Sequence record: OP172789 | Strand: one strand, 5' to 3' | DNA: 64,000 bases | Source: Escherichia phage ECO71P1 | In this document: piece by piece, positions 8,419 through 28,387 of the stretch | Numbering within the stretch: position 1 is the stretch's first letter | How the letters are laid out: each line of letters begins with the position of its first letter | Notes under the pieces: generated by a model | What the model was told of the DNA's origin: nothing | The model's database searches: none | The model's input: only the letters and a program-made list of their open reading frames with translations | Translations under genes and position numbers: made by a program

Positions 8419-10088
8419 CAGAATTCATCCTTATCTCTTCCTAAAGAACGTTTGCGTTCAATAACCTTCTTCAAGAATTCAATATCTTCAGGGTCAGATT
8501 CATCGCGGATAAGATACGCCAAAATAGTCATCAGGTCAGAAATGTATTCCCCTGCTTCATTCTTAATCAGCGGCGTAAAGTAACCACGCTGGTTGCGATA
8601 GGTTGCAGGCTCAAATCCAAGCTTCGACATGTGCGGCGCAAGGGTACGTGAGAAAGGCGACTTGCCGCACTTAGCTCTGAAGCCCATAGCGATTGCACCA
8701 CTAGTGATGTGCCAGCGTCCGCTGTGATGTCGGTCATAAGGCGCGGTGATGACGACTTCAACAAGGTCGTTGTCGACCATCTCGTCACGGATAACGCCGC
8801 GAGCACGTTCCATTTCGTTCTTGCTGAACTCAGTAAGCATGCGAGACGTTTCACCAACAAAAGCGTTGTAACCTGCTTCGCCGTGCTTCTCCATCCACGC
8901 AGCACACTCAGCCATCAACTGCCAAACATCTTCTTTCAAAGTGGAAAGGTCAGCTTGGAAGTCTTTCGACCAGTTCGGTTGCCCGTCCTTGTCTGCGAGT
9001 TGGCCAACAAAGATAGGATACACACGACGGTTGCCCGTATCGTCACGCTGCATGCCTGCGTATTCGTTGCCGTCCATGATAGCAATCCACTGGCGCGGTT
9101 TAACCTGCGTATCTTCAAATTTGAAGTCCAGGTCATCTTCCGTCTTAGTCAGGAATGCTTTCATGTTTTCGATGTCGGCCTTTTTAAAGCCTGTCATCTC
9201 GCCAACGTTCGCGATAATTGAGCGACCCGTAATAGCTCGCAAGAACGGGTTGAAGTTCTGCGCGGCCAAGTTCAACGGAATCGGTGTTGCGTGGCGGTCG
9301 TTCATAATAGCTTCGCAAAGCAGCTTACTGAAATAACTCTTCCCTGCGTTCTGGCCGCCGATGAGCGCAATGGAGATTGGCGCTTGACAGCCAGGGTTGG
9401 TCAGGCGGTTATAGAGCGATAGCCAAAAATACACACCGATTTGTCGGTTTAACTCTGTATCGAACGGTCGGAATAGCTCGATAAGGTATTTCTCAATGCG
9501 CGCAGTACCGTCCCATTCAGGCAGCTTCTTGTAGAAGAAGTCCATCAGGTCGTCGCGCTGATAACGCATGGCCCATTCCTTATAGGATTGAGCGACCTGA
9601 CGTGAGTTTGGGTTGGACAGGCCTGCTGCGTCGACAGCGGCAACTATCTCTGTGACTTCCAACGTCCGGTCGGTGAATGTTTCTCCGCGATGGTCGACTA
9701 AGCGTCCACGAAAAGTATCTTTGTGAGGGAATGGGACAATGCCGCTTCCCTTATCAAACAACGCGTCGAAAACCGCATAACGGTTCATGTCACTCGTCCG
9801 GTCCGCCTGAAGAACAAAATCATCTTTCGTCGGTTTGTAGTGAGGGAACTTGATTACCTGAAGTGAGGCGAGCAAACGTGCTCTTTCAACCAAGTCTTCT
9901 TCACCGTAGCACTCCATGCGCTCTGCATCTTTCTCAACAGCCTTATGCTGGAGGCTGATTTTAGCTCTGGTGCCTTGCTGCTCTGCCGCTTGCATCTCTT
10001 CTGAAACACCAGCGTCTTGAATTTCGTCAAAGGTTGCACCAAATTCATCACCTGTATCCTCTGGAAGATTGTCATGTTCAATTGACAT
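8418..10088 (-). CDS. DNA primase-helicase-like P-loop NTPase (VirE/D5 family-like)
   Basis: Walker A GGQNAGKS in the C-terminal half of a 556-aa protein; architecture typical of phage replicative primase-helicases. Confidence 0.7.
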   Translation of the reverse strand: MSIEHDNLPEDTGDEFGATFDEIQDAGVSEEMQAAEQQGTRAKISLQHKAVEKDAERMECYGEEDLVERARLLASLQVIKFPHYKPTKDDFVLQADRTSDMNRYAVFDALFDKGSGIVPFPHKDTFRGRLVDHRGETFTDRTLEVTEIVAAVDAAGLSNPNSRQVAQSYKEWAMRYQRDDLMDFFYKKLPEWDGTARIEKYLIELFRPFDTELNRQIGVYFWLSLYNRLTNPGCQAPISIALIGGQNAGKSYFSKLLCEAIMNDRHATPIPLNLAAQNFNPFLRAITGRSIIANVGEMTGFKKADIENMKAFLTKTEDDLDFKFEDTQVKPRQWIAIMDGNEYAGMQRDDTGNRRVYPIFVGQLADKDGQPNWSKDFQADLSTLKEDVWQLMAECAAWMEKHGEAGYNAFVGETSRMLTEFSKNEMERARGVIRDEMVDNDLVEVVITAPYDRHHSGRWHITSGAIAMGFRAKCGKSPFSRTLAPHMSKLGFEPATYRNQRGYFTPLIKNEAGEYISDLMTILAYLIRDESDPEDIEFLKKVIERKRSLGRDKDEF

Positions 10089-10146
10089 TTAATCCTCCTG
10101 ATACGGCTTTGTTATATTGTTGCATGGATATATCCTTTCAGGGTGC

Positions 10147-10174
10147 GGTAAATAAACGCCAGAAATCTGGCGTT
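10147..10174 (-). terminator. rho-independent terminator (8-bp stem AACGCCAG/CTGGCGTT, 4-nt loop, T-tract on minus strand)
   Basis: Perfect inverted repeat 10155-10174 followed on the minus strand by UAUUUACC. Confidence 0.55.
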
Positions 10175-10224
10175 GTATATTAATATAGTAAAACTCAGTT
10201 TAAAGCAATATAACTGGTGAACTA

Positions 10225-10515
10225 TCAGCAAGGAAATTGGTCAGCGTATGCCTTTCTCAATTTGTTTACTGACTGAACAGAATGAAGGTATTGGCAATCG
10301 GTGAAGATGCGGCGCAAACAATCCATAGAAGACAGGTCATCGTTAGTAACCACCAGAATCTCTTCCGAAGGGCAACCAGCTTCTTTGGCAATCTCATTAA
10401 GATTTGAGCCATTAATTTCTTCAACACGTTTCACCTCATCGATACCGTAAACATCAACGGCAACTTCGATGTCGTCATCGCTGATATTCTCACCATAAAG
10501 AATTACAATATTCAT
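10225..10515 (-). CDS. hypothetical protein (96 aa, acidic)
   Basis: ORF track. Confidence 0.45.
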   Translation of the reverse strand: MNIVILYGENISDDDIEVAVDVYGIDEVKRVEEINGSNLNEIAKEAGCPSEEILVVTNDDLSSMDCLRRIFTDCQYLHSVQSVNKLRKAYADQFPC

Positions 10516-12640: not shown

Positions 12641-12967
12641 ATGAACGAAAAAGATACGAAGCAACGAGAACGTGCAACACACGTCGGCATCGTTGAGTCC
12701 TTCCTTAATACAAGACTGAATTCAAGTCTTACAATTATGCGATTCCTGGGTCAACCAGACAGAATCAAATTCATCTTTGCCGCAAATCCGGTATCGCTTT
12801 ACATCCCTGTTGAATCCATGGCGTACCTGGTGCGCGACGAGCAAGGGTGGAAGATACCAAACACGACTGTTTTCTTCAGTCACGTTGACGGTGAGATGTT
12901 TGAACGAAAAGAAGATTGCCATTTTATTCCAGTATATCTGGACCTTGAAAGCGTAGTGGAGTTATAA
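12641..12967 (+). CDS. hypothetical protein (108 aa)
   Basis: ORF track; first gene of the plus-strand block after a divergent promoter region. Confidence 0.5.
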   Translation: MNEKDTKQRERATHVGIVESFLNTRLNSSLTIMRFLGQPDRIKFIFAANPVSLYIPVESMAYLVRDEQGWKIPNTTVFFSHVDGEMFERKEDCHFIPVYLDLESVVEL

Positions 12968-14151
12968 TGAACATTCCAGAATTTAATAATGAGCCAGTGA
13001 TTCAGTTCAACGCGCAACAGATTGATGCCATCGAAAAGGCCGTTGCATGGTACAAGCGATTGCAGGACGGTAAAACGACGAAGCGCGTGTTTTTCATCGC
13101 TGGCTATGCAGGAACAGGTAAAACCTCTATTGCGCGTGAGATTGTGCGCCGTTGTGTCGGTGAGTACGGTGCCATTTATATTGCGCCGACCGGAAAGGCA
13201 GCCAGCCGATTGAAGCAGAAAGGGTGTCGTGGCGCGAAGACACTTCACCAGTTCATCTATAACGTGCGCGGCGTAAATGACGACAATGAGCCAATATTTT
13301 CGAGAAAGTCAAAGCTGGACGAAAAGCCGCATCTTGTAGTCCTTGATGAAGCTTCAATGGTTGGCGAGTGGGATACAGAGCGCCTTCTTGATCACCGCAT
13401 CCCTGTGCTGGCATTAGGCGACATTGGACAAGTCCCTCCGGTAAAAGCCGCCGCCTACTTTACTGAAGATGCCGTTGACGTACTGTTAACCGAAATCATG
13501 CGGCAAGGGAAAGAGTCCAACATAATCCGCGCTTCCTTCTTCGTGCGACAGGGCAACCGACTTCCTCCGCGTGAATACGATGACGTCAAGGTGTTGGCTG
13601 AATCGCCGCGCGTTACCGCACTGAAGAAATTCATGGGCGAAGATGATCAGATTATTTGTTCATATAACAGCACCAAAGATAAATGGAATTCATTATTGCG
13701 GCAAGTGAGCGGACGTATAACGCCAATGCCAGGAATCGGTGAGAAAGTTATTTGCACATTCAACCAACACGGTCCAGGATTCTGTAATGGCGAGCAAGGG
13801 ATTGTTATTAGTTATGAGCCAGTACCGGACTTTGAAAGGGATGAAGATGAGTCCAATGAAATAATGTATGTAAATTTGCGCTCGCTTACCGATGGCAAAG
13901 ATATAAAGGTCAAGATAAATCCTCTTTCCTTCTCTACTGATCAGGAAGTGCGCAAAGAGGCTCAACGCGCTGTTGGAGGAATGGACTATGGCTATGTCAT
14001 AACGGTGCACAAATCGCAAGGCAGCGAGTGGGATAATGTGTGCGTTCTGGAAGAAATCTTGCGCGGCGTTCCGTATGCCAAGATGATGTACACAGCCATC
14101 ACCCGTGCTAAGAAGAATCTGACTGTGTACCGTGATTTGAAAGCGCGTTAA
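12967..14151 (+). CDS. SF1 DNA helicase, Dda/RecD-like
   Basis: Walker A GYAGTGKTS, motif II VLDEASMV, C-terminal SQGSEWD motif. Confidence 0.8.
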   Translation: MNIPEFNNEPVIQFNAQQIDAIEKAVAWYKRLQDGKTTKRVFFIAGYAGTGKTSIAREIVRRCVGEYGAIYIAPTGKAASRLKQKGCRGAKTLHQFIYNVRGVNDDNEPIFSRKSKLDEKPHLVVLDEASMVGEWDTERLLDHRIPVLALGDIGQVPPVKAAAYFTEDAVDVLLTEIMRQGKESNIIRASFFVRQGNRLPPREYDDVKVLAESPRVTALKKFMGEDDQIICSYNSTKDKWNSLLRQVSGRITPMPGIGEKVICTFNQHGPGFCNGEQGIVISYEPVPDFERDEDESNEIMYVNLRSLTDGKDIKVKINPLSFSTDQEVRKEAQRAVGGMDYGYVITVHKSQGSEWDNVCVLEEILRGVPYAKMMYTAITRAKKNLTVYRDLKAR

Positions 14152-14254: not shown

Positions 14255-14310
14255 TAAGTTATCCCAAACGGGGAATATAAAATAAACTAATTTATTTAAG
14301 GACTGTGAAT

Positions 14311-15150
14311 ATGGCCGAAGCAATCAAAGTATTATCTAAAGAAGAAAAACAAGCAGCTGCAGCAGAACGTCGTCGCGTGGCTGAAGAAAAACGCCTGGCT
14401 AAAAAGAAAGAAGCCGAAGAAAAACGCCAGAAGCGTGAGCAGGAAAAACAAGCCAAGCGTGAAGAAGCTGCACTGAAACGCAAGCAGGCCGCTGATGAGA
14501 AAGCACAGAAACGTGCTGAAGAAGCAGCGAAGAAAGCCAAAGAGCGTGCAGAAAAAGCTGCTGCTAAGAAAGCAGAGCGTGAAGCCGCTAAAGCAGCAAA
14601 AGAAATCGAAAAGGCAAAGGCTAAAGAAGAAGCCAAGCGCCTGAAAGCTGAACAAGCTGCTGCTAAGAAAGCAGAGCGTGATCAAGCCCGTGCTGCAGCG
14701 AAGGCCGAAAAAGAGAAGGCCAAAGAAGAAGCTAAAGCGAAACGCAAGGCAGAGCGTGAAGCTGCTAAGATTGCGGCTAAAGAAGCTGCAGAAAAGCAGA
14801 AAGAACAGCGTAAGAAAGAAGCTGAAGAACGTCGCAAAGCCATCGCAGAACGTAAGGCTGCTAAAAAGGCAAACGGTCAGCGTCGTGCAAAAGCAACCCA
14901 CTTCATCTACACTGGCAATGGCCTGAGCCAGCCGCAAGAGCATTCCACCCGTGGACGCGTTCTGGCGGCGATCAAAGAAGGCGAAGTTGGCGTGGCGCAG
15001 TCTATCGATGAGCTGGGCGAAAAAGTTAAAGATCAACTGTTTGGCGCTTCCGTTCGCTCCTACCTGAGCAAGCTGGAAGAGATGGGCCACATCGAGTTTG
15101 TCGATGTTGAATCCAACGAAGATGCCGAAGACGGTGATCAAGCGGAATAA
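14311..15150 (+). CDS. Lys/Ala/Glu/Arg-rich low-complexity helical protein with C-terminal globular domain and acidic tail
   Basis: About 200 aa of KAEKAAAKKAEREA-type repeats (DNA-level direct repeats of gctgctaagaaagcagagcgtga), then ~70-aa non-repetitive domain ending EDAEDGDQAE; terminator follows. Confidence 0.7.
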   Translation: MAEAIKVLSKEEKQAAAAERRRVAEEKRLAKKKEAEEKRQKREQEKQAKREEAALKRKQAADEKAQKRAEEAAKKAKERAEKAAAKKAEREAAKAAKEIEKAKAKEEAKRLKAEQAAAKKAERDQARAAAKAEKEKAKEEAKAKRKAEREAAKIAAKEAAEKQKEQRKKEAEERRKAIAERKAAKKANGQRRAKATHFIYTGNGLSQPQEHSTRGRVLAAIKEGEVGVAQSIDELGEKVKDQLFGASVRSYLSKLEEMGHIEFVDVESNEDAEDGDQAE

Positions 15151-15175
15151 CCTTAGGACGGTTATGCAGCGGTAA

Positions 15176-15206
15176 TTGACCCACACTTGTTGTGGGTCTT
15201 TTTTCA
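15176..15206 (+). terminator. rho-independent terminator (GACCCACA/TGTGGGTC stem plus TTTTTT)
   Basis: Perfect 8-bp stem, 5-nt loop, T6 tract. Confidence 0.7.
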
Positions 15207-15229
15207 TCTGTACTAAATAAAATGACTTG

Positions 15230-15258
15230 TTGCTGTAAAATAATTTAGCTATTATACT
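15230..15258 (+). promoter_or_regulatory. sigma70-like promoter (-35 TTGCTG, 17 bp, -10 TATACT)
   Basis: Hexamers read directly upstream of 15283 gene. Confidence 0.5.
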
Positions 15259-15282
15259 TATCATATCACCCACAAAGGACAA

Positions 15283-16278
15283 ATGAACATGAAACAACCT
15301 GTAATGATTATCGGCGGCGGACTGGCAGGACTTATCACCGCTTGTCACTTCCCGAACTCTGTTGTGTACGAAGCAGGGGAACGAGCGCAACAGCACAAGG
15401 CGCTGCTACGCTTTCGCAGCGAAGAAGTAAGCCGTATTACCGGAATCCCTTTTAAGGCTGTGACAGTTGACAAGGCTGTGTATTTTCGCGGCCACTACTA
15501 CCACGACCATTGCCCAATCAACCTTGCCAATATGTATTCCATGAAGGTCACCAATCAATTTGGCAGCCGTTCAATCATGAAGCTTAAGACTGCAACGCGT
15601 TATATTGCGCCTGATGACTTTTATGATCAGCTTGTCGACAAACTGGGTGACCGAATATTCTTTAATACTCCGGTTGATACTCTTTGCGGCTATAGCGAGA
15701 CGCCAATCATCAACACGTCGCCGCTGCCAGTCATGATGAAGCTGGCTGGGATTGATCAAAAGCTTGATTTCTCATTTGATAAAGCAAACATTCGTGTTTA
15801 CCGCTTTAAGATTAAACGTAAGTGTGATTTGTATCAGACAATTTACTTCCCTGACTACTCCGTCAGAACTTACCGCGCATCAATTACTGGTGACACGCTT
15901 ATCATTGAAACAATTCCTTTGGTCAGCGTGAGTGAAGCTGCAGTTGAAGCCGCTGGCGGCATCACTCGTTACCGTGACATGAAGCTGCGCGCAGAAGTCG
16001 ACGAAGTGTTGACAGCCTTTGGCCTCTCATGGAGCGACATCGCTCTTGAAGAAGTTGAAAAGGTCGACCAGAAATATGGCAAGATTGTCGACATTCCGAA
16101 AGACTTGCGACACGCCCTACTCCTGCAGCTGACTATGGATTTGAACGTGTTCAGTGTCGGTCGATTTGCTACCTGGCGCAACATTTTGCTTGATGACGTT
16201 GCCCATGACCTTGTTGAAGTTGAAAAACTCATCAAAGCAAATAACTATCAAAAATTTGCTTATATTGCTAATAAATAA
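15283..16278 (+). CDS. FAD/NAD(P)-binding Rossmann-fold oxidoreductase (flavoprotein-like)
   Basis: N-terminal dinucleotide-binding motif VMIIGGGLAGL...E; 331 aa; exact family unresolved. Confidence 0.55.
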   Translation: MNMKQPVMIIGGGLAGLITACHFPNSVVYEAGERAQQHKALLRFRSEEVSRITGIPFKAVTVDKAVYFRGHYYHDHCPINLANMYSMKVTNQFGSRSIMKLKTATRYIAPDDFYDQLVDKLGDRIFFNTPVDTLCGYSETPIINTSPLPVMMKLAGIDQKLDFSFDKANIRVYRFKIKRKCDLYQTIYFPDYSVRTYRASITGDTLIIETIPLVSVSEAAVEAAGGITRYRDMKLRAEVDEVLTAFGLSWSDIALEEVEKVDQKYGKIVDIPKDLRHALLLQLTMDLNVFSVGRFATWRNILLDDVAHDLVEVEKLIKANNYQKFAYIANK

Positions 16279-16279
16279 T

Positions 16280-16323
16280 TTGCTTTCTGCTTCAATGGGC
16301 GTATACTTTAATCATTGAAGCAG
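16280..16323 (+). promoter_or_regulatory. promoter (-35 TTGCTT, 16 bp, -10 TATACT) with 11-bp inverted repeat CTGCTTCAATG/CATTGAAGCAG bracketing the -10
   Basis: Read directly; perfect dyad. Confidence 0.45.
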
Positions 16324-16343
16324 AACTCATAGAGGAAACGAAA

Positions 16344-16790
16344 ATGAAACGAATCACTGGAATCGCGCTTGCCGCTACTGCTATTCTCGGCACCATGTAT
16401 ATGGAAGCAACTGAAGCTGCCATCCGCACTTCCGATTCAGTCGCTGTTTACGATTGCGAAGCGATGGACGGTAAGACCGCAGCAACGACTGGTGCGAAGA
16501 TTACCACTTACATCGGTGTGAATGAGCAAGAAGGTCTGAATATTCAGATTCAGGGATTCACAGGGAAAGGTGCCAACCGTACTCCGTGGATGCAACGTTT
16601 CACTTTCGTCCAGCCTCGTTCAACTGGCGGCTTTATCAATCTGATTGGTGAAAACCGTTCTGGTGCAGAAATCTTTACATCAATGAGTTCTAATAATGAA
16701 CCAAAGAAAAGTTTTCAGTTGCTTTATAACGCACAATTCGTTTATCATTGCACCTTCTCTGGTGATCAGCAACTAGTGAATTACCGTTAA
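16344..16790 (+). CDS. hypothetical exported protein (N-terminal signal-peptide-like segment, two Cys)
   Basis: MKRITGIALAATAILGTMYMEATEAA hydrophobic N-terminus; good RBS. Confidence 0.5.
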   Translation: MKRITGIALAATAILGTMYMEATEAAIRTSDSVAVYDCEAMDGKTAATTGAKITTYIGVNEQEGLNIQIQGFTGKGANRTPWMQRFTFVQPRSTGGFINLIGENRSGAEIFTSMSSNNEPKKSFQLLYNAQFVYHCTFSGDQQLVNYR

Positions 16791-16803
16791 TAGGACAATT
16801 AAA

Positions 16804-17577
16804 ATGAAAGTTGAATTAATTCGATACACCCAAGATGCACTTGACCTTTTGCTGGAAACAAAGAACACGCGCATGACTGGTAAGCCTGTCTCTGAGATGA
16901 CGGAATCAGAGAAGCAAGAGCATTGGCGCTACATGCTTGATACAATCAAGTCACCTTTTGACTTTGTGGACTATATCTTTGACATAACCGTTGTTTCAAA
17001 GAATATGACTCATCAGATGGTCCGAACACGCGCAGGCGCATATCAAGAACGCACCAGTCGCGCTCAGGAATCTTCTGCATTTGATGCGATTCGCCCTAAA
17101 GCATTTGAGCACCCTGACGGCTCCACAAGCGAGCTTGGCGAGAAGTGGGATGATGCGATGGCGACTATTGATGCCATATATCAAGAGCTTCGCGCGGCTG
17201 GCGCAGAGATTCAGGATGCGCGTGCCGTGTTGCCTTCTAATATGCAAACGCATATCATGGCAAAGTTCAACTTGCGCACGCTGCAGCAGATGGCGTCAAA
17301 CCGCTTGTGCACGCGCACTCAAGGCGAGTATCAAGAAGTATTCCGCGCAATGGTTGCGGAAGTCCTCAAGGTGCACCCGTGGGCTAATCCTTTGCTGCAG
17401 CCGCAATGCATCGGTATGGGTAAGTGTGCGTTTCCTCGTCACGGTAAAGCCCATTGCCCTTGGTATCGTGATTGGATGGATACCACTGCACAGCAGGAAG
17501 AGTTGCGCATTCAGTTTTGGGATGCCGCGCCAATCACCAACAATCCAGTTGCTAAAGATGGAGTATCAAAAGGATGA
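16804..17577 (+). CDS. thyX: ThyX-like flavin-dependent thymidylate synthase homologue with altered signature (RTR...TSR in place of RHR...SQRY)
   Basis: SKNMTHQMVRTRAGAYQERTSRAQ aligns to the ThyX RHRx7S block as recalled; 257 aa; translationally coupled to next gene. Confidence 0.6.
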   Translation: MKVELIRYTQDALDLLLETKNTRMTGKPVSEMTESEKQEHWRYMLDTIKSPFDFVDYIFDITVVSKNMTHQMVRTRAGAYQERTSRAQESSAFDAIRPKAFEHPDGSTSELGEKWDDAMATIDAIYQELRAAGAEIQDARAVLPSNMQTHIMAKFNLRTLQQMASNRLCTRTQGEYQEVFRAMVAEVLKVHPWANPLLQPQCIGMGKCAFPRHGKAHCPWYRDWMDTTAQQEELRIQFWDAAPITNNPVAKDGVSKG

Positions 17578-18446
17578 GTTTTAAAAATAACCAAATCTTG
17601 AACGTATTCGACCTTGACGGAACTCTGTTTGATGACCGTTGGCGCTTAGACCGCATCAAGATTGCAGGTCCGTTGTCAGACTATGATGACTATCACAGCG
17701 GTATTGGTTATGATCAGTTCTATCCTCACATTGCAGCAGCAGTAGAGTCAGCATCTCTTCGCGGTGAGGCGGTTGAATATTGGACTGCAAGGCCAGAAAA
17801 ATACAGACAAGTGACTTTTGAACGTCTGGACAATGTTTTTCCTTTTGATGAATTTACAATCAAGATGAGAGACTCTGGCGACAAACGTCCATCAACTATT
17901 ATGAAATCTGAATGGCTATCGCACGCTTTGCGGCACGGCGATTATCGAATCATCAATATATTCGACGACCGACAAGACGTACTCGCGCGGATGCAAGATG
18001 AAGCCTTGTATTATAATTCCGTTGCTCAAAATAAAATCGCTTTTACGTTTAATCTTTGCAAGGCAGGTGAAGTGGTGCAACAATTAGCAATTGATCCAAG
18101 CGCAACGGGGCAAGAAGAGACTAAGGCTGTGGAAATTGAACAATCTCCGGCAACCGCCGCCGATATTCTTGATGCGATGGCAGCAACCTTCCGTGAGCGC
18201 AACGCTGTCTATGGCGATAACGCTGTGATGGTAGGCCAGGTTATGCAGGTGCTTTTCCCTAATGGCGTAACGTTGAAAACGCCGGAAGACTACCACATGT
18301 GGCATCTGTTCGAGCTTAAGATTGTCAAGCTTACACGCTTTGCAATCAGCGGCCTGAAGCACGAAGACTCTATACACGACGATGGTGTTTACAGCGCCAT
18401 GTGTGAACGTCTTGTCAACACCCATAATATTAATTTCAATAAATAG
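17574..18446 (+). CDS. HAD-superfamily phosphatase domain fused to a C-terminal domain of unknown function
   Basis: N-terminal DLDGTL (HAD motif I); ATGA overlap with the ThyX-like gene. Confidence 0.55.
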   Translation: MSFKNNQILNVFDLDGTLFDDRWRLDRIKIAGPLSDYDDYHSGIGYDQFYPHIAAAVESASLRGEAVEYWTARPEKYRQVTFERLDNVFPFDEFTIKMRDSGDKRPSTIMKSEWLSHALRHGDYRIINIFDDRQDVLARMQDEALYYNSVAQNKIAFTFNLCKAGEVVQQLAIDPSATGQEETKAVEIEQSPATAADILDAMAATFRERNAVYGDNAVMVGQVMQVLFPNGVTLKTPEDYHMWHLFELKIVKLTRFAISGLKHEDSIHDDGVYSAMCERLVNTHNINFNK

Positions 18447-18484
18447 TTTACTTGTGCGTTTCGATGAGTTATATTTATCTCATC
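18447..18484 (+). promoter_or_regulatory. promoter (-35 TTTACT, 17 bp, -10 TATATT) with GATGAG/CTCATC dyad bracketing the -10, followed by CATCGAAACGAA leader
   Basis: Read directly; same architecture at 25423-25460. Confidence 0.45.
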
Positions 18485-18511
18485 GAAACGAAGTCCAAAA
18501 AGGATAAATAA

Positions 18512-19195
18512 ATGAAAAAAGTAATTGTTGTAACTGGCTGCAATTCCGGTCTTGGTAAATCCATTTTTGACACCCTTGGCGCTTACGGTCACGAAGTTGT
18601 CGGTATTGATTTGGACAACGGTTATGACATCCGTAACGCGAAACAGATGAAAGAGCTTCTCTCTCAATACGACGTAGAGGGCTTGATCAACTGCGCTGGC
18701 GTCAACTCCAACAACTGGTTTGAAGACGTTAACTACGAAGAGTTTAATCGCGTTATGCACACCAACGCCTTCTCTTTCGTTAACACGACTCAGGCCGCGC
18801 TGAAAAGTCTTATTGACAACAAAGGTTTTGTGATCAACATCGTTTCCAACGCTGCGCATATTCCTATGACGTCCAGCTTGTGTTATAATGCTTCCAAGGC
18901 CGCTGCGCTTATGATTAGCAAGCAGATGGCTCACGAGCTTACGCCTAAATACGGGATCACGGTCTTCTCTATTAGTCCTAACAAGTTGCGTGGCACTGGT
19001 ATGTCTAAACAGATTGAAGATGCTGTTTGCGCGACTCGCGGCTGGACTCCTGAGTATGCTGCTGAATACCAGAAAAAGGCGTTGATGAATGGATTGGAGA
19101 CTGAGCCGCAAGTAATTGCTGACTTCATTCGCCATATCTTAATTACGGGCGCATGGCGCTTTATGTCTGGTACTGATATTCCATTTGGGAAATAA
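18512..19195 (+). CDS. short-chain dehydrogenase/reductase (SDR) family oxidoreductase
   Basis: TGxxxGxG (VTGCNSGLGKS), NCAG, catalytic YNASK motifs. Confidence 0.75.
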   Translation: MKKVIVVTGCNSGLGKSIFDTLGAYGHEVVGIDLDNGYDIRNAKQMKELLSQYDVEGLINCAGVNSNNWFEDVNYEEFNRVMHTNAFSFVNTTQAALKSLIDNKGFVINIVSNAAHIPMTSSLCYNASKAAALMISKQMAHELTPKYGITVFSISPNKLRGTGMSKQIEDAVCATRGWTPEYAAEYQKKALMNGLETEPQVIADFIRHILITGAWRFMSGTDIPFGK

Positions 19196-19198
19196 ATC

Positions 19199-19414
19199 AT
19201 GAACAAAGCCTGGGTAGCGGTAATCGGTTTAGTGCTTCTTGTTGTATTAGGATACACAATCAAATTTGAAGTTCCAAATCCTGTTGAGCCTGACAAAAAG
19301 ATTGTCGTTGAAGTCCCAGGCGCTAAAGGTGAATTACCAAAACCTAAATTTGAAGTTGTCACACCCGCTCCTGAAAAGCAACAGGACGAAGACAACACAG
19401 TAATTAATCAATAA
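19199..19414 (+). CDS. small membrane-anchored protein with Pro/Lys/Glu-rich tail
   Basis: N-terminal hydrophobic helix WVAVIGLVLLVVLGY; 71 aa. Confidence 0.45.
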   Translation: MNKAWVAVIGLVLLVVLGYTIKFEVPNPVEPDKKIVVEVPGAKGELPKPKFEVVTPAPEKQQDEDNTVINQ

Positions 19415-19434
19415 TATTTAATTAAGGAAACAAA

Positions 19435-19986
19435 ATGCCACACTTTAAAATTGAACAAATCGCCCTGTCAATTCCAGATGCTCAGCGTGCACAGGATTTT
19501 CTGGCTAAAATCGGCCTGACAGAATGGTTCCATGATCATGTTGTTGCTACTGGTCGCGTATTTGAAAATGACGAGTTTAAAGGTCGTCGCGACGATTGCA
19601 CCAACGAAGCTGACTTGCGATTCAACTATCAGGCTGGCAACGGCACCGATGGCGGCGCTGGTAAGCCTCTTGAGCTTGAAATCCTTGACTACACAATGGG
19701 TTGCAACTGGATCAACGAAAACATCGACATGCTTGATGCGCACGATAATCAGGTCAGCCATCTTGGCATGCATGTGACTGCCGCTGAACTTGCTGAATGG
19801 CGTAAGTTCTTTAAAGAAGAAGGCATTCAGGTTGCGCAGGAAGTCGTAACTGACTCTCACACCAACCCAAATATTGCTGGTCAGCGTCGTTACAACTATG
19901 TGATCTTTGATACGCGTGAAATCATCGGTGTCGACCTTAAGTTCATTGTGCGGTTGAATCAAGACGGTACTCCGTACACTGCATAA
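19435..19986 (+). CDS. VOC (glyoxalase/bleomycin-resistance/dioxygenase)-like protein, tentative
   Basis: Size and N-terminal pattern reminiscent of VOC fold; weak assignment. Confidence 0.35.
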   Translation: MPHFKIEQIALSIPDAQRAQDFLAKIGLTEWFHDHVVATGRVFENDEFKGRRDDCTNEADLRFNYQAGNGTDGGAGKPLELEILDYTMGCNWINENIDMLDAHDNQVSHLGMHVTAAELAEWRKFFKEEGIQVAQEVVTDSHTNPNIAGQRRYNYVIFDTREIIGVDLKFIVRLNQDGTPYTA

Positions 19987-20002: not shown

Positions 20003-20027
20003 GGCCGTCCTAATGGGCGGCCTTTTT
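20003..20027 (+). terminator. rho-independent terminator (GGCCGTCC ... GGGCGGCC plus TTTTT)
   Basis: GC-rich hairpin followed by T5. Confidence 0.55.
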
Positions 20028-20040: not shown

Positions 20041-20583
20041 GTGTTATTTCTTCCTTATGACTTCGAAACAACCGGATTAACCGTGCACCCGAAAGCGCCG
20101 CTTGGGATGCAGCCGCGCCCTATTGAATTTGCAGGCCTGTTGACGGACGGCAAAGAGATTCTTGAAACGTTCGAGTTCATAATCAACCCTGAAATCGTGA
20201 TTGAAGAAATCATCACAAAGATTACCGGATTAACAAATGAAGACCTTGAGTGCAATCCGCCATTCATCAATTTTGTTCCGCAGCTAAAAGAAATCTTCAA
20301 GAAGACTGATGCCACTATCGCGCACAACCATGCGTTCGATAAGAACATTCTTGATTATGCACTACAGCGCGAAGGACTTACACTTGATGATGTTAATTTC
20401 CCAGAAATAAACATCTGTACAGTTGAGCAAACCTTGCCTATTTTTGGCCGAAGAGTTAAGCTTCAAGAGCTGTATGAATTATATTTCGGAAAATATGAAC
20501 AGAAGCACCGTGCATTAGACGACGTAATATTACTGCACAAAGTCTGCCAACAAATTGGCGTATATGACATCTGGAGTAAATAA
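20041..20583 (+). CDS. DnaQ-like 3'-5' exonuclease (DEDDh proofreading subunit)
   Basis: Exo I DFETTG, Exo II HNHAFD, Exo III HRALDDV; AGGAGG RBS; GTG start. Confidence 0.8.
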   Translation: MLFLPYDFETTGLTVHPKAPLGMQPRPIEFAGLLTDGKEILETFEFIINPEIVIEEIITKITGLTNEDLECNPPFINFVPQLKEIFKKTDATIAHNHAFDKNILDYALQREGLTLDDVNFPEINICTVEQTLPIFGRRVKLQELYELYFGKYEQKHRALDDVILLHKVCQQIGVYDIWSK

Positions 20584-23480
20584 TGTTTCCACAATTGAGA
20601 GTTCGCAGCGGTTACACGTTCAAAGAAGTATATGGACGGCATCCTGAAATTATAGCACGGCTCAAAGAGTTGGGCTGCGAAGTCGCGGCATTAGTTGATA
20701 ACAATACATGGGGTCACGTTCGCTGGGAAAAGGAATGTCAGAAGAATGATATCAAGCCTATGTTCGGCATGGAAATTCCAATCATCGACCCTGATGCGGA
20801 CCCGAAAAAGGGATTCAAACCGAAGGCTTGGATATTGGCGCTTGACCTGAAATCTTTTTACAACGCTACGACACTTGCAACACAGCGCGGCGGACTGACC
20901 CGTGCAGAGTTCGGGGCGCTGGATGGCGTCGTTAAATTCTGTGGCGGGGCTGTGGAGTTGCTGCGACCAGAGGACTACGATTATATAGACGTCAACCCAT
21001 CATCGTTCCTTTTGGCCAAGCGCCAGGTATTGGCTCACCGCAACAACGGAAGGCCGCTGGTTTTAACCGGATACAACCACATGCCTTCACCTGAGCACGT
21101 TGACTTTGCTTATGCTTGGGAAGTGCGCGACACGGTCAAGCCGCACTGCATCGTTGACGCGGAAGACTTGTGCAAACAGCTTAAAGGAATCCTGACCGAA
21201 GATGAGTTGAATCAAGCAACGGCCAATGCGGTTGATATTGCAAACGGAATCGTTGGGCTTGGCCTGAAGCTGCGCAAGGCACCGATTATCCACCTTGCTG
21301 GTGACATGGTAAAGCTTGCTCGTGAGGGTATGGAGTACCGCCTTAAGGCAGGTCACATCAAAGAATGGACTCAGGAATACGAGGACCGATTCAACGAAGA
21401 GATTCACCAGATTCAGCTGAAAGACTTTGACTCATACTTTCTGGTGGTAGCGGACCTTGTACGATTCGCAAAAACAAAAATGCTTGTCGGACCCGCTCGC
21501 GGCTCATCGGCTGGTTCACTGGTTTGTTATTGCCTCGGCATCACGGAAGTTGACCCAATCCCGTATAAGCTGCTGTTCGCCCGATTCATCGACGTAAGCC
21601 GCGCCGACCTTCCTGATATTGATATTGACTTTGAGGATACCAAACGCTATATGGTGTTTGATTACCTTAAAGAAAAATACGGCGAAATGAACGTTGCAAA
21701 GCTTGGCAACATCAACACTCTTAAGGCCAACTCAGTAATGGCTCAGGTTGGTAAGAAATTCAACATTGGATATCACGAAACGGCCAACATTAAAAACGCA
21801 TTGCTTGAATACTCATCTGGTGACGCCCGTTATGGTCACGGCCTGGAGGATACCTTTGCAACAACTACCACGGGTCAAGAGTTTGTGGCGAAATATCCTG
21901 ACGCCGCGCGTTGCATGGGTGACCTTGAGATTCACCCGTCCCACACAGGTGTTCACGCAGCGGGAATCATCGTGTGTAATGATCCAATCTCTGATTACTG
22001 TACTGTAACGGCGGAAGGGATTGCGCAAATTGATAAGCCTGACAGCGAATACCTTAACCTTTTGAAGCTTGATGCATTGGGTCTTCGCACCCTCGGAATC
22101 ATTTCTGATACTGGCGTGATAGACGCTGAAACGCTGTACGGAATCAAGCTTGATGATCAAAGCGTCCTTGACATCCTTAACGAAAACAAGATGTCAGGAA
22201 TATTCCAGTTTGAAGGCGACGCTGTACGCTCAGTAACCAACTTTGTGCACGTTGATAACTTTAACAAAATCGATAACCTGACAGCACTTGGCAGACCTGG
22301 CCCGTTGTCATCCGGTATGGCCCAGAAATACATCGAACGCGCGGCAGGACGTGCGCCGATTGAGTACGACGTGCCGCAGCTTGAGCCGTACTTAAAAGAG
22401 ACTTACGGCGTGTTTCTTTACCAAGAGCAAATCATGGCCGTGGTTAAAGAGATTGGTTCATTCGACTGGGCGAAAACATCAGCTGTACGTAAGGCAATGT
22501 CAGGTCGTAAGGGTGAAGAATACTTTAACAAGCTTGGCGAAGACTTCGTTGCAGGCGCAATAAATAACGGCGTACCGGAAGCGGATGCAAGAAAGCTTTG
22601 GCAGGCGATGGCGACGTTCGGGTCATGGGGCTTTAACAAGTCACACTCCGTGTCATACGCGGTCGTGACTTACTGGACCTTGTGGCTTAAACGACACTAC
22701 CCGCTGGAATTTGCCGCTGCTTGCTTACGCGCTGCTAAGGACGAAGACCAGACGATTGCGATATTACGTGAACTTGCAAAGGAAGGCGTGGATTATGTGC
22801 CAATCGACCCTGATCACTCTTCAATGAACTGGACCATCGCTAACGGAAAGCTAATCGGCGGCATCATGAACGCTAAAGGGTACGGAATGGTAAAAGCGAT
22901 GAAGTACATCGAAGCACGTGAAGCCGGAACCTTAACGCAAAAACAAAAGGACGCATTGGCCAATGCTGAAGTCAAATACGGCGACCTTACAGAGATGCAC
23001 ACCAAGTTCGGTTGGGCGTATAATGACCCCTATCTGATTGGCGTTACTTCCGGTGCTTCAATACGCCAGATGAAGGAAGTCGGTGATGACGAGCGTGCAA
23101 TAGTGATCGGCAAGCTGACCAAGAAAGTGCTGGCTGACGAGAACGAAGCAACACGCATCCGTAAACGTCTTGAGCGCGGCATTTATACAAAGCACGGCAA
23201 ACTTAAAAAGGGTCTTCAAGCTGATGGTCGCTACGCAGAGTTTGACCAGTATGGAAACAAGCTTGAGACTCAGTTCATTGACCTTATGTGCAAGGACGAT
23301 TCGACCGACTCGCCAATGCGCTTCAGGATTCGCCCAGAGAAGTTCCAGAAATACGGTAAATACATTGCAGAGAACGTCGGGAACGGCGCATTCTTCCTGA
23401 TGAAAGGCCGCAAGCTTGAAGGTATTGACATGTTTATCGTCGACGTGATCAAACAGGTGTATCCAGATGGCAACAAATAA
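20583..23480 (+). CDS. dnaE: DNA polymerase III alpha (DnaE)-like replicative polymerase
   Basis: N-terminal PHP-like LRVRSGYTF and core motif GPARGSSAGSLVCYCLGITEVDPI; 965 aa. Confidence 0.85.
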   Translation: MFPQLRVRSGYTFKEVYGRHPEIIARLKELGCEVAALVDNNTWGHVRWEKECQKNDIKPMFGMEIPIIDPDADPKKGFKPKAWILALDLKSFYNATTLATQRGGLTRAEFGALDGVVKFCGGAVELLRPEDYDYIDVNPSSFLLAKRQVLAHRNNGRPLVLTGYNHMPSPEHVDFAYAWEVRDTVKPHCIVDAEDLCKQLKGILTEDELNQATANAVDIANGIVGLGLKLRKAPIIHLAGDMVKLAREGMEYRLKAGHIKEWTQEYEDRFNEEIHQIQLKDFDSYFLVVADLVRFAKTKMLVGPARGSSAGSLVCYCLGITEVDPIPYKLLFARFIDVSRADLPDIDIDFEDTKRYMVFDYLKEKYGEMNVAKLGNINTLKANSVMAQVGKKFNIGYHETANIKNALLEYSSGDARYGHGLEDTFATTTTGQEFVAKYPDAARCMGDLEIHPSHTGVHAAGIIVCNDPISDYCTVTAEGIAQIDKPDSEYLNLLKLDALGLRTLGIISDTGVIDAETLYGIKLDDQSVLDILNENKMSGIFQFEGDAVRSVTNFVHVDNFNKIDNLTALGRPGPLSSGMAQKYIERAAGRAPIEYDVPQLEPYLKETYGVFLYQEQIMAVVKEIGSFDWAKTSAVRKAMSGRKGEEYFNKLGEDFVAGAINNGVPEADARKLWQAMATFGSWGFNKSHSVSYAVVTYWTLWLKRHYPLEFAAACLRAAKDEDQTIAILRELAKEGVDYVPIDPDHSSMNWTIANGKLIGGIMNAKGYGMVKAMKYIEAREAGTLTQKQKDALANAEVKYGDLTEMHTKFGWAYNDPYLIGVTSGASIRQMKEVGDDERAIVIGKLTKKVLADENEATRIRKRLERGIYTKHGKLKKGLQADGRYAEFDQYGNKLETQFIDLMCKDDSTDSPMRFRIRPEKFQKYGKYIAENVGNGAFFLMKGRKLEGIDMFIVDVIKQVYPDGNK

Positions 23481-25483: not shown

Positions 25484-25747
25484 ATGGTACGCATCCTTGA
25501 ACGTTACAAAAATGAAGCTACTGGCGCAATCGCGTTCAAACGTCTTTTGGTCAAAGAAATTGACGGCATGTTCCGCGTTGTAAAAGAGTTTGATTATGGA
25601 AACGGTGCTGGGGTGAATACCGTCATTATGCCTGGCATCAAGGCATATAAAACTTTGAAAGGCGCTGAGAAGGCTTTGGCGGCTTGGAAACCTGAACGTT
25701 ATCAAATGACCCGTGTTGAAGGGCTAATGCAAGAAGGTAAAATATGA
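25484..25747 (+). CDS. hypothetical protein (87 aa)
   Basis: ORF track; good RBS. Confidence 0.5.
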   Translation: MVRILERYKNEATGAIAFKRLLVKEIDGMFRVVKEFDYGNGAGVNTVIMPGIKAYKTLKGAEKALAAWKPERYQMTRVEGLMQEGKI

Positions 25748-26301
25748 GCAATATTAATTGGGAAGATGATTTGCCGCAGGTCGCTCCTGAGAGCATCCAA
25801 GAGCGCCTTGCGCGCTTAGTATCGGAATTGGCAGAACGCCAAGAAGCTTTGACAGAGCTTGAAGATGAAGCTGATATGCAAAAGCAGCGCATCAGTGAAA
25901 TCAAAACTGTTTTGCTTCCTGGCGTTATGGATGAGCTTGGCGTGTCCGAAATCAAGCTTGAAGACAAGACCAAGATCAAGGTCGAGTCAAAAGTTAATGC
26001 TTCAATTAAGAAAGAAAATGAATTGAAGGTATTCGATTGGCTTGTCAACAACGGTTACGGCGGCTTGATCAAGTCCAGCGTCACGGCTGAGTTCGGTCGC
26101 GAAGAAATCGAACAAGCGCAAGAGATTGTTGCCGCGCTGCGTGAAGACGGTGTTGAAGCCACGTTGAAACAAGGTGTTCATTCTGCTACACTGAAGTCAT
26201 TTGTAAAAGAACAGCTGGAAGCGGGTAATCCAGTTAGTGAAGATATTAGCGTTTTTGAGTATAAAGAAGCTAAAATAACCTTGCCTAAAAGCAAAAAGTA
26301 A
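25744..26301 (+). CDS. hypothetical protein (185 aa, coiled-coil N-terminus)
   Basis: ORF track; overlap coupling. Confidence 0.5.
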   Translation: MSNINWEDDLPQVAPESIQERLARLVSELAERQEALTELEDEADMQKQRISEIKTVLLPGVMDELGVSEIKLEDKTKIKVESKVNASIKKENELKVFDWLVNNGYGGLIKSSVTAEFGREEIEQAQEIVAALREDGVEATLKQGVHSATLKSFVKEQLEAGNPVSEDISVFEYKEAKITLPKSKK

Positions 26302-26360
26302 TTTAACCTTTATCTTGAAATCAGGTTGCCACGAAACTTGATACTATAGGAAAACATCAA

Positions 26361-27221
26361 ATGTCTAAGAAAGAAACTACCGAAGTTGCAGTGAAAAACA
26401 CCCAGATGTCCGCTATGGCTGATTTTGTCGATATGACCGATTTTGGCGCTGGTTTTGAAGGTGCCGATGCCGACGCTTATGCCATTCCTTTTATCGTCGT
26501 ACTGCAAAAGATGTCTCCGATGGTCGACGAAGATGATCCAAAACACGTTCCTGGCGCAAAAGCTGGCATGTTGTACAACACCGTTACTGGTGAGTTGTAT
26601 GACGGCAAGAAAGGCGTGCAGATCATCCCTTGCGCATTCAAACGCACCTTCATCCTTTGGGGCGGTCGCGAGTCCGACGATAAAGGCTTTAAAGGTGAAT
26701 TCACCAAAGAGCACGTTGATGCAGAAGTCGCGGCAGGCCGCGCTGTTGAAATCAACGGTAAGGTATTCGTGCCAGACGAAAACGGCAAAGTGCACGAGAA
26801 GAAATCACCTTACTACGCAGATACACGTAACCACTTTGTGATCCTGTTAAACGAAGAGACTGGTGAATTTGGTAGCGCAATGCTGTCTCTGACTTCTTCC
26901 ATGATCAAGCCGTCTCGCATGCTGATGACCGCTCTGCAGCAGAAGAAAGTTCAGACTCCGCAGGGCCTGAAAACTCCGCCGACCTTCATGAACATCGTTC
27001 GCATGGGTACTGCGTCTCAGTCCAAAGATGGCAACACCTGGTCAGTTCTGAAGTTTGAGCTGGAAGGTCTGGTGCAGGATAAAGGTCTGTATGAAGTCGC
27101 CAAAGCATTCCACAACGACGTAGTTGGCGGCAACGTTAACATCGACCGCAGCAAGCAGGAAGAAGCAAGCGGTGCCGCTGGTCCTGTCAATGAAACTCCG
27201 ACCGACGCAGAAGAGTTTTAA
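26361..27221 (+). CDS. candidate single-stranded DNA-binding/annealing protein (acidic C-terminal tail ending in Phe)
   Basis: C-terminus ...ETPTDAEEF resembles acidic F-terminated tails of SSBs (T7 gp2.5, bacterial SSB); location in replication block; inference. Confidence 0.4.
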   Translation: MSKKETTEVAVKNTQMSAMADFVDMTDFGAGFEGADADAYAIPFIVVLQKMSPMVDEDDPKHVPGAKAGMLYNTVTGELYDGKKGVQIIPCAFKRTFILWGGRESDDKGFKGEFTKEHVDAEVAAGRAVEINGKVFVPDENGKVHEKKSPYYADTRNHFVILLNEETGEFGSAMLSLTSSMIKPSRMLMTALQQKKVQTPQGLKTPPTFMNIVRMGTASQSKDGNTWSVLKFELEGLVQDKGLYEVAKAFHNDVVGGNVNIDRSKQEEASGAAGPVNETPTDAEEF

Positions 27222-27278: not shown

Positions 27279-27797
27279 ATGATAGAAAGAATTGTACCGT
27301 TACTGAAGATTCTTGCCCTTGTTGGCGCGTTCGCCGCTGGGTCATACGTTGAAGACCTTAAGCAAACCAACGCATCACTGGCCAAGGATAATCAATATCT
27401 TACATCGCTTAATGAGCGTAAGGACAAGATAAATGTACTCGAAGAGCAAATTGCATCTTTACAGGTTGAATCGGCATCGGCATATGAGAAGGGTCGCCAG
27501 GAAGCGCAACTGGTTGCTGATGACACTATTGCTCGTTACAAGTCTGGGAATATCAAGCTGCGCGAGCAACTCAGCTGCTCCCGTGAATTACTCAGGAGTG
27601 TGCCCGACTCTGCGACCACTGGACGCCTCTCTATCCCAGAAGGAAACTGTGGACTATCAGAAGAGGATGTCAGATTTCTTGTTCAGTTCGCCGCAGAAAC
27701 AAACCGATTAAAAGAGAAGGTTAATAGCTTGATTGATACTTATAATCAGGCTAAAATTAAAATCGACCAATTCAACGCATCAAAGGAAAATAAATGA
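27279..27797 (+). CDS. i-spanin (Rz-like): N-terminal TM helix plus coiled-coil periplasmic domain
   Basis: TM segment IVPLLKILALVGAFAAGSYV, coiled-coil remainder, embedded out-of-frame lipoprotein ORF. Confidence 0.65.
   Translation: MIERIVPLLKILALVGAFAAGSYVEDLKQTNASLAKDNQYLTSLNERKDKINVLEEQIASLQVESASAYEKGRQEAQLVADDTIARYKSGNIKLREQLSCSRELLRSVPDSATTGRLSIPEGNCGLSEEDVRFLVQFAAETNRLKEKVNSLIDTYNQAKIKIDQFNASKENK
27484..27711 (+). CDS. o-spanin (Rz1-like) lipoprotein embedded in the +1 frame of the i-spanin gene
   Basis: MRRVARKRNWLLMTLLLVTSLGISSC: basic n-region, hydrophobic core, lipobox-like ISSC; short mature peptide; entirely within 27279-27797. Confidence 0.6.
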   Translation: MRRVARKRNWLLMTLLLVTSLGISSCASNSAAPVNYSGVCPTLRPLDASLSQKETVDYQKRMSDFLFSSPQKQTD

Positions 27798-28387
27798 ACC
27801 AGATTTATGCAAACATTCGCCAGTGGGCTTCTGACCGTAACATCATCAAAGGTTGCGACCTTAAGGACCAATACCCGAAGCTTATTAGCGAGTTTGGGGA
27901 GTTGACCGACCACGTGGATCAACTCCATGACCTTGTGTTCTTTGACCCTGAAATCGGATATACAGAGCAGGCCATCTGTGATTTACAAGCCGCAATCAAG
28001 GACGACATCGGCGATTGCCTTGTTGTGTTAACTATCCTTGCCGCGCAAAATGGTGCAAAAATCGAAGACATCAACGGCGGCGGTTGCGCCGACAAAGGTG
28101 CCCACCCTCACTCGTTTATCCTTCGCTTGGCAAAGACTCTCGGACGGCTTGGTGATGCCATTGCTAAAAATCAGAGTATGGATATTGATGTCACCATCAT
28201 GGCCGCAGTCGATTACCTTTCCGGCGTAGCACATGATTATGGACTTCGACTGTCTGATTGCGCTCAGGCCGCCTATGAAGACATCAAGGACCGTAAAGGC
28301 GTGATGTACAACGGAACGTTCATCAAATCGACTGATCAGGCTTACGCCTATGCGCTGGAACAAGTGATGAATAAGGAGTTTGAGTGA
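27794..28387 (+). CDS. MazG-like nucleoside triphosphate pyrophosphohydrolase
   Basis: LISEFGELTDHV (E-x-x-E-x-GEL-type motif) and downstream acidic DDIGD; ATGA overlap with spanin gene. Confidence 0.65.
   Translation: MNQIYANIRQWASDRNIIKGCDLKDQYPKLISEFGELTDHVDQLHDLVFFDPEIGYTEQAICDLQAAIKDDIGDCLVVLTILAAQNGAKIEDINGGGCADKGAHPHSFILRLAKTLGRLGDAIAKNQSMDIDVTIMAAVDYLSGVAHDYGLRLSDCAQAAYEDIKDRKGVMYNGTFIKSTDQAYAYALEQVMNKEFE

Follow-up and report, generated by a model that had tools for sequence, protein, structure and literature searches.

Flavin-dependent thymidylate synthases of the ThyX family, represented by Thermotoga maritima TM0449 and PBCV-1 A674R (PF02511), carry two residues described in the literature as strictly conserved, Tyr91 and Ser88, the first of which is the proposed general acid; a Y91A enzyme is reported to be more than 100-fold slower. 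His53, also described as conserved, packs against both the folate pterin and the reduced isoalloxazine and forms hydrogen bonds with Tyr91 and Asn85 (PMC11940539), and ThyX is reported to act via a formaldehyde-derived flavin carbinolamine (PMC8316439). PolB, a neofunctionalised ThyX paralogue from polyoxin biosynthesis, provides a precedent for recruiting this fold to C5 alkylation of another nucleotide; it is an enzyme of bacterial secondary metabolism, unlike the phage protein studied here, and we liken the two by description. We know of no partner flavoprotein for PolB. Here we analyze a 64,000-nucleotide stretch of Escherichia phage ECO71P1 (record OP172789; hereafter the window, whose numbering is used throughout), in which a block of seven plus-strand genes, p1 to p7 in order, lies at 15283-19986. 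Judged by sequence comparison, five of these genes are a widely conserved, uncharacterised set, with a variant ThyX-like enzyme (p3) and a second flavoprotein (p1) at its core.

The original prediction had treated all seven genes as one thymidylate/folate or DNA-base-modification module. The seven consecutive open reading frames (ORFs) it listed are all present, and the idea of a single unit held for five of them, which keep their order across 43 to 63 diverse loci, and failed for p2 and p6. A tblastn search with the window proteins covered six isolate loci (Cronobacter podovirus Ss1, a Rhizobium jumbo phage, Pbunavirus JG024, Serratia phage Hera, Xanthomonas phage Carpasina and a Salmonella phage) and 80 IMG/VR loci, the latter recovered with a p1 profile. 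The recurring order was p1, the ThyX-like gene, a haloacid dehalogenase (HAD) phosphatase with DUF6378, an optional pair made up of a short-chain dehydrogenase/reductase (SDR) and a vicinal oxygen chelate (VOC) protein, then DnaQ and DnaE. We found this order in isolates of five genera and in the 80 IMG/VR loci; Pbunavirus, Myosmarvirus and Carpasinavirus share it, as do dozens of metagenomic phage contigs. Where 4 kb or more of sequence was available downstream (63 loci), a ThyX-like gene always followed p1, at a median gap of 361 bp and never more than 2.9 kb away. Of the 43 loci whose downstream sequence reached 7.5 kb or more, 42 had HAD/DUF6378, 42 had DnaE, with the set lying immediately before the replicase, and 32 had both SDR and VOC; one had VOC without SDR, and the two genes occur together in 32 of 33 loci. 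Pbunavirus keeps the core of p1 and the ThyX-like gene without SDR or VOC, which some other lineages also lack.

The core enzyme p3 (257 aa; 16804..17577, plus strand) is a divergent ThyX-like flavoenzyme. The earlier ThyX-like call was borne out by a Pfam Thy1 match of 2.6e-30 (106.1 bits against a gathering cut-off of 24.8); against the NCBIfam thyX equivalog, TIGR02170, p3 scored 73.7 bits, under the cut-off of 87.9. The register between p3 and T. maritima ThyX was identical in HMMER comparison with PDB chains and in three MAFFT runs, whose T. maritima reference agrees with the PDB alignment over residues 46-201. We then read the residues of 70 module-linked sequences in T. maritima numbering. 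The dUMP-binding arginines R78, R80, R90, R147 and R174 were invariant in all 70 (R74, R76, R86, R140 and R167 in p3), as were R165, Q75 and N163, and p3 keeps equivalents of the flavin-contacting Ser/Thr55, Glu/Asp58, Asn163 and Arg165. Equally without exception, His53 is replaced by Ile, His59 by Phe, His79 by Thr, Ser or Asn, Tyr91 by Val or Ala, and His178 by Arg; p3 has I48, F54, T75, A87 and R171 at these positions. The ThyX motif, RHR-x7-S plus R-Y, is not found in p3, which reads R74-T-R76...T84-S-R86-A87, with RHR changed to RTR. With His53 and Tyr91 both replaced in 70 of 70 sequences, this subfamily has lost the two members of that flavin/folate gate at once. On this residue pattern, the p3 group is a distinct ThyX subfamily and not standard ThyX, with its nucleotide site intact and its flavin/folate face remodelled.

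The Thy1 domain, the dUMP arginines and Q75 are thus common to p3 and canonical ThyX. In contrast to canonical ThyX, a second flavoprotein is always present, and half of the p3 family, p3 included, has an extra four-cysteine set and a C-terminal extension. In p3 these residues are Cys169 (17308-17310) in the active-site loop, two residues past the R174 equivalent (R167-L-C169), and Cys202 (17407-17409), Cys208 (17425-17427) and Cys218 (17455-17457) in the extension (C-x5-C-AFPR-x6-C). The set is all-or-none: of 71 aligned sequences (70 from phages plus T. maritima), 36 have all four cysteines and 35, including T. maritima, have none. The ThyX-like protein of mycobacteriophage Gumball shares the pattern, which may form a metal (Zn) or iron-sulfur site.

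The first gene, p1 (331 aa; 15283..16278, plus strand; phrog_4828), had been called a Rossmann-fold flavoprotein, and we agree: it is an FAD-type Rossmann flavoprotein with a fold like those of UDP-galactopyranose mutase (UGM), protoporphyrinogen oxidase (PPOX) and amine oxidases (GR2). Its AlphaFold model was confident (pLDDT 86, pTM 0.84). About 1955 relatives were found in public data; the best 120 of these include many on contigs of ~60-73 kb, and none carries a Pfam domain. In an alignment of 45 sequences, GxGxxG lies at the N-terminal end and a GRFATWRNILLDD motif at the C-terminal end, and a large number of arginines are invariant, which suggests an anionic ligand. No Pfam or NCBIfam family matched p1 at E values up to 0.1, and phrog_4828 is an orphan family. 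Searches of PDB, Pfam and NCBIfam with the single sequence and with the 45-sequence profile returned the dinucleotide-binding motif only, and aligning the profile by hhalign with E. coli Glf (an approximate query sequence) matched the GxGxxG region alone. Compared with UGM, PPOX and the amine oxidases, p1 is shorter, and it has no sequence-profile match. Modelled in this way, p1 is a UGM/PPOX-like flavoprotein and not a demonstrable UGM.

The fold likeness raises a sugar-nucleotide pathway, in which p1 would be a UGM that acts with the SDR, VOC protein and phosphatase to produce an unusual sugar, used either to glycosylate DNA or to alter the host O-antigen. p1 falls outside Pfam GLF and the corresponding NCBIfam membership, and neither a glycosyltransferase nor an acceptor pathway accompanies it in 20 other window ORFs scanned with Pfam or in the annotations of relatives. 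We regard this pathway as very improbable.

What p1 does have is a partner. Together with the 63 of 63 loci above, the phage isolate database, in which p1 occurs in 361 records, gave the same genera for p1 and the variant ThyX, each with 292 Pseudomonas, 26 Escherichia and 9 Serratia records. Partner flavoproteins were found in this database only in genera that carry variant ThyX. Canonical, T. maritima-like ThyX occurs in 2142 phage records; of the genera at the head of that list, those found in neither partner list (Synechococcus, Rheinheimera, Bacillus, Vibrio and Campylobacter) lack these flavoproteins, and Pseudomonas is outside the ten leading genera. The phage ThyX of Clostridium phage phiCP9O and Bacillus phage 268TH002 have the canonical residues. 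The pair also exists away from the replicase. In a 206-kb Rhizobium jumbo phage it stands with no DnaE nearby and with a HAD-DUF6378 gene 3 kb further on, and in a 56-kb metagenomic contig (L053) p1 and the ThyX-like gene are alone, again with no nearby DnaE gene. We conclude that the ThyX-like gene and p1 are obligate partners and that this is the tightest link in the set. Two observations on the surroundings of such pairs may be recorded here. In the Rhizobium phage, RHph_TM2_3B, a Seg-like homing endonuclease (L004, 7909-8559) sits directly after the p1 homologue and before the ThyX-like gene; in L053, the next ORF (9969-10241, 90 aa, 'HPKHYT...IKYIWR') resembles a DUF3310-type small protein.

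The third member of the set, p4 (290 aa; 17574-18446, plus strand), overlaps p3 by 4 bp. The call of a HAD phosphatase fused to an unknown domain was correct, and both parts can now be assigned. The N-terminal domain (17574..18098) is a capless HAD phosphatase of the PNKP 3'-phosphatase type, with motifs I to IV on a capless PNKP-like core and catalytic residues D13, D15, T71, K111, D131 and D132 invariant. The C-terminal domain (18141..18446) is a four-helix bundle (helices 195-213, 216-227, 237-258 and 264-280; invariant R, Y, K, R, D, S, D, Y) assigned to DUF6378 (PF19905), with matches from 17 of the 20 family members (best 1.3e-5) and none from the window copy at E values up to 1. T4 Pnkp and bacterial Pnkp1 share the 3'-phosphatase domain type; in p4 the linked 5'-kinase domain is absent, its place being taken by the bundle, which is not a P-loop kinase, and in the family the HAD domain is instead fused or adjacent to DUF6378. 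The two domains are fused in 46 loci and split into neighbouring genes in about 20, a pattern of fusion and fission from which we argue for a functional link between them. By analogy to PBS2 and SP8-type phages, the HAD domain might have been a dTMP 5'-nucleotidase; we provisionally set this candidate aside because the fold is of the 3'-phosphatase type.

The last two members are p5 and p7. p5 (227 aa; 18512..19195, plus strand) is the classical SDR that had been predicted, with TGxxxGxG, NxAG and S...YxxxK motifs (TGCNSGLG, NCAG and S...YNASK) and an adh_short match of 1e-31 (110 bits). Its best NCBIfam and PDB matches, all below cut-off, were FabG, glucose dehydrogenase, DhbA and acetoin reductase, and its nearest solved relatives are FabG enzymes. 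p7 (183 aa; 19435..19986, plus strand) is VOC-like (glyoxalase/dioxygenase superfamily), with Q8, E82, H109, H142 and D167 invariant, and is present wherever the SDR is. This earlier call survives in weaker form: the match to Glyoxalase_4 is slight (0.0045; 17.7 bits, where the cut-off is 27), weak matches to the same family come from 12 of 17 relatives (best 1.8e-5), and a p7 profile found nothing in PDB. Relatives of p7 were found in Microbacterium phages.

The SDR had been proposed to act as a FolM- or pteridine-reductase-like enzyme, which would make the block a module for dTMP synthesis with its own folate/pterin recycling; in such a module p1 would regenerate the cofactor. The SDR fold is compatible with such a role, and the gene shares an operon with the ThyX-like gene. 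However, neither FolM nor the pteridine reductase PTR1 was among the best p5 matches in NCBIfam or PDB, the nearest families being FabG, acetoin reductase and 2,3-dihydro-2,3-dihydroxybenzoate dehydrogenase, far below cut-offs, and p5 looks like a generic classical SDR. Pbunavirus, moreover, keeps the ThyX-like gene and p1 without an SDR, and the folate-stacking His53 is lost. ThyX also yields tetrahydrofolate and not dihydrofolate, hence no dihydrofolate reductase is needed. Folate recycling is therefore a highly unlikely role for the set. Two further schemes were set aside with no evidence in their support: an aromatic ring-cleavage trio (flavin hydroxylase, diol-dehydrogenase SDR and extradiol VOC dioxygenase) and non-radical ribonucleotide reduction.

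A counterpart of the set occurs in actinophages. Sparcetus has, in order, a 286-aa GxGxxG 'oxidoreductase', a HAD phosphatase, an SDR (36% identity to p5), a VOC-like protein (33% to p7), a DUF6378 protein (49% to the p4 C-terminal domain) and DnaE, with a 466-aa 'ThyX-like' gene 8 kb further on. In Gumball, an oxidoreductase, a HAD 'nucleotidase', an SDR, DnaE and a ThyX-like gene all lie within 8 kb. We found the actinophage oxidoreductase in 126 records, among them 46 of Gordonia, 36 of Microbacterium, 32 of Mycobacterium and 9 of Streptomyces. It often stands right beside a gene annotated 'ThyX-like', for which the Mycobacterium count is likewise 32. In several Microbacterium phages the oxidoreductase directly adjoins the ThyX-like gene, and in Hiddenleaf, Wentworth and OtterstedtS21 it lies upstream of DnaE. 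The ThyX-like proteins of Gumball and Sparcetus, both aligned, lack His53 (Leu in Gumball) and have Phe for Tyr91 and RQR for RHR. We treat p1 and the actinophage oxidoreductase as positional analogues: hhalign of the p1 profile gave 47% probability with the single actinophage sequence and aligned 17 columns with a 5-sequence profile. Searches did not detect a VOC homologue in the mycobacteriophage and Gordonia modules, in which an annotated methyltransferase was observed between HAD and SDR (L094, 12388-12918; L097, 8130-8858). As a separate observation, the DnaE-like polymerase of Microbacterium Krampusvirus is annotated as two consecutive ORFs (L092, 8311-11808; L095, 9399-12750).

We tentatively favor, at somewhat less than an even chance, a two-flavoprotein system for pyrimidine C5 methylation that makes dTMP for the phage DnaE replicase. 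The block would then be a replication-associated nucleotide-metabolism operon with p3 and its dedicated p1 as core. p3 would alkylate C5 of a uridine nucleotide, most probably giving dTMP for DnaE, and p1 would take over the role of the lost His53/Tyr91 gate. It could do so by passing reducing equivalents to the p3 flavin, or by providing the one-carbon unit, for example as an iminium or formaldehyde equivalent produced by amine-oxidase-type chemistry; the reported formaldehyde-derived flavin carbinolamine of ThyX makes the one-carbon role more plausible. The PNKP-type HAD and DUF6378 would carry out an accessory step on phosphorylated nucleotide or DNA-end substrates, the SDR-VOC pair, present in two thirds of lineages, would add further accessory steps on such substrates, and p2 and p6 would have no role in the set.

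Several points weigh against this dTMP-producing system. If p3 does lack its general acid, it might be something other than a thymidylate synthase. The p4 HAD domain resembles DNA/RNA end-healing phosphatases, and a repair role with the phage ligase fits equally well. Alignment of p1 with the actinophage oxidoreductase by hhalign was confined to the GxGxxG region, without full-length homology. Finally, the loci are not phylogenetically independent, and co-occurrence partly reflects shared descent of the DnaE replication module.

In a rival reading no joint pathway exists, and the genes are independent replication accessories whose order is kept by descent. p3 would then count as a divergent but otherwise ordinary thymidylate synthase, and the HAD domain would heal 3'-phosphate ends for the ligase. 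The three others, p1, the SDR and the VOC protein, would serve auxiliary or host-takeover functions unconnected with these. Synteny in the same phages does extend over the entire replication module (RecD-like helicase, DnaQ, DnaE and ligase), Pbunavirus and some other lineages do without SDR and VOC, and a PNKP-type HAD suits end-healing in a phage with a ligase gene at 28384-29361. Descent alone, however, fits poorly with a p1/ThyX-like pair that survives outside the DnaE module, with HAD and DUF6378 alternating between fused and split adjacent genes, and with the joint gain or loss of SDR and VOC in 32 of 33 loci. SDR, VOC and DUF6378 homologues also re-assemble in actinophages with a flavoprotein, HAD and ThyX-like gene despite very low overall similarity, and the variant ThyX signature and the flavoprotein go together. 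We consider full independence unlikely.

A different departure from dTMP synthesis is that the set makes a non-canonical pyrimidine nucleotide, which DnaE would build into DNA that then resists restriction. p3 would halt at or divert the exocyclic-methylene intermediate, or move a group other than methyl; p1, SDR and VOC would supply or tailor that group, and removal of the competing canonical nucleotide would fall to HAD/DUF6378 and MazG. The systematic replacement of ThyX catalytic residues, the PolB precedent for a neofunctionalised ThyX and the retention of the set beside a private polymerase across phyla all speak for this reading. In 2-aminoadenine phages, the PurZ/DatZ/MazZ/DpoZ cluster likewise keeps a nucleotide-synthesis enzyme, hydrolases and a private polymerase together across distant phages. 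That resemblance, one of logic, is a further point in favor, although the enzyme families are entirely different. Thymidine hypermodification clusters (M6, ViI, SP10 and PhiW-14) also combine a C5-pyrimidine enzyme with tailoring enzymes that include a flavoprotein. They use a ThyA-family dUMP hydroxymethylase, a P-loop 5-hydroxymethyldeoxyuridine DNA kinase and aGPT-Pplase, and Pfam scans of the 20 further window ORFs found none of these hallmark genes, which counts against this reading. Glycosyltransferases and methyltransferases were likewise absent from those ORFs and from the annotations of relatives.

Restriction data bear on the same question. ECO71P1 belongs to Wifcevirus, E. coli myoviruses for which restriction resistance has been reported, with EcoP1_I as an exception and with its cause unexplained; a non-canonical base would fit. 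The 16 EcoRI, 7 EcoRV and 3 EcoKI sites within the window count in favor as well. Its 6-bp palindromes are depleted (788 against 1078 expected) and GATC strongly so (106 against 277 expected, z -10.6); BamHI, BglII, SacII, KpnI, NheI and SmaI sites are absent, and SalI (27 against 10 expected) and SspI sites are over-represented. Palindrome avoidance and missing sites are what would be expected of DNA still exposed to restriction, and they suggest that this DNA remains exposed to type II enzymes, contrary to a protective base. A further point against is that DNA of Pbunavirus JG024 was cut by SacII as predicted, although the SacII site has no T; apart from this, the vB_Eco4M-7 and JG024 papers hold no informative restriction data. 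Although these phages have been sequenced many times, our literature searches turned up no paper describing modified bases in them; in addition, Pbunaviruses have the core without SDR and VOC, and the HAD domain is of the 3'-phosphatase and not the 5'-nucleotidase type. On balance, we doubt that the set makes a non-canonical nucleotide. The specific form in which p3 and p1 are an unrecognised two-component flavin system, using a group other than the folate methyl or a folate-independent one-carbon donor and yielding, with HAD/DUF6378 and SDR/VOC, a non-canonical base incorporated by DnaE, is similarly improbable to us. Of the original alternatives, a dTMP module with folate/flavin recycling or a pathway to a non-canonical pyrimidine, the component families essentially stood and neither model was demonstrated.

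The remaining block genes differ from the set. p2 (148 aa; 16344..16790, plus strand) has the signal-peptide-like N-terminal segment, and p6 (71 aa; 19199..19414, plus strand) the N-terminal membrane anchor, that had been noted and called unexplained. By tblastn, p2 matched only in the three Wifcevirus loci and p6 in one other locus, also within Wifcevirus; in relatives, other small unrelated ORFs fill the p2 slot and one or two such ORFs the p6 slot. p2 and p6 look like lineage-specific fillers outside the conserved set, and because they match only within Wifcevirus and their slots are variable, the puzzle of a secreted and a membrane protein in the block disappears.

The block region is 92-97% identical in DNA to 28 Wifcevirus genomes of E. 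coli and Shigella phages, among them ECML-117, FEC19, WFH, Mansfield and BASEL Bas98-101. From p1 to p7, the intergenic gaps are 65, 13, -4, 65, 3 and 20 bp. A terminator-like hairpin (15178..15198, plus strand; 8-bp stem, then TTTTTT) closes the upstream gene, and another (20003..20022, plus strand; 8-bp stem with seven GC pairs, then TTTTT) lies just before DnaQ; the Mansfield record has terminators annotated at both equivalent positions. Given hairpins on both sides and the tight packing, the block is predicted to behave as a separate, tightly packed transcription unit.

The block had been placed between the helicase and replicase genes, which is right on the replicase side: the DnaQ-like exonuclease (20041-20583, plus strand) follows directly and adjoins the DnaE-type polymerase (20583-23480, plus strand), confirming the predicted polymerase with its own exonuclease. 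On the other side, a K/E/A-rich gene of 281 aa without a Pfam family (14305-15150, plus strand) intervenes between the block and the RecD-like helicase (12967-14151). The position and C-terminal part of this protein are conserved in Pbunavirus, Myosmarvirus and Carpasinavirus, and some records label it 'putative structural protein'; an antisense ORF of 354 aa that overlaps its gene (14332-15396, minus strand) looks like a low-complexity mirror artefact and not a gene. The MazG-like NTP pyrophosphohydrolase (27794..28387, plus strand) matches phrog_1992 at 2e-63, in line with the earlier call, and Pfam MazG only at 0.011, below cut-off. It is loosely tied to the block, 8 kb downstream and beyond the spanin genes, and some actinophages have a gene annotated as nucleotide pyrophosphohydrolase inside the equivalent module. 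The o-spanin ORF (27433-27711, plus strand) is embedded in the i-spanin gene (27279-27797, plus strand), and the pair is flanked by recombination-type genes (Pam3 gp33/gp34-like, 25744-27221) and by MazG and the ligase, an unusual location for lysis genes.

Deposited annotations of the block genes range from hypothetical to 'UDP-galactopyranose mutase', 'thymidylate synthase', 'polynucleotide kinase/phosphorylase' and 'FabG-like'. Literature searches (UGM with ThyX and phage; Pbunavirus DNA modification; DUF6378; 'ThyX-like') found no functional study of these genes, and no description of the set as a unit, of the variant ThyX signature or of the flavoprotein pairing. The set is present in hundreds of sequenced phages, and it gives the orphan families phrog_4828 and DUF6378 a functional context. 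A ThyX subfamily that lacks 'strictly conserved' catalytic residues and is selected together with a second flavoprotein bears on the mechanism of ThyX itself, in particular on the flavin reductant and the carbon donor. The restriction resistance of Wifcevirus becomes a testable question, with Bas98-101 in the published BASEL collection. If the set made a non-canonical base, that resistance would be explained, and the same would be implied for Pbunavirus therapy phages and several actinophage clusters; if only dTMP is made, the set would still be a new, accessory-protein-dependent form of a known enzyme.

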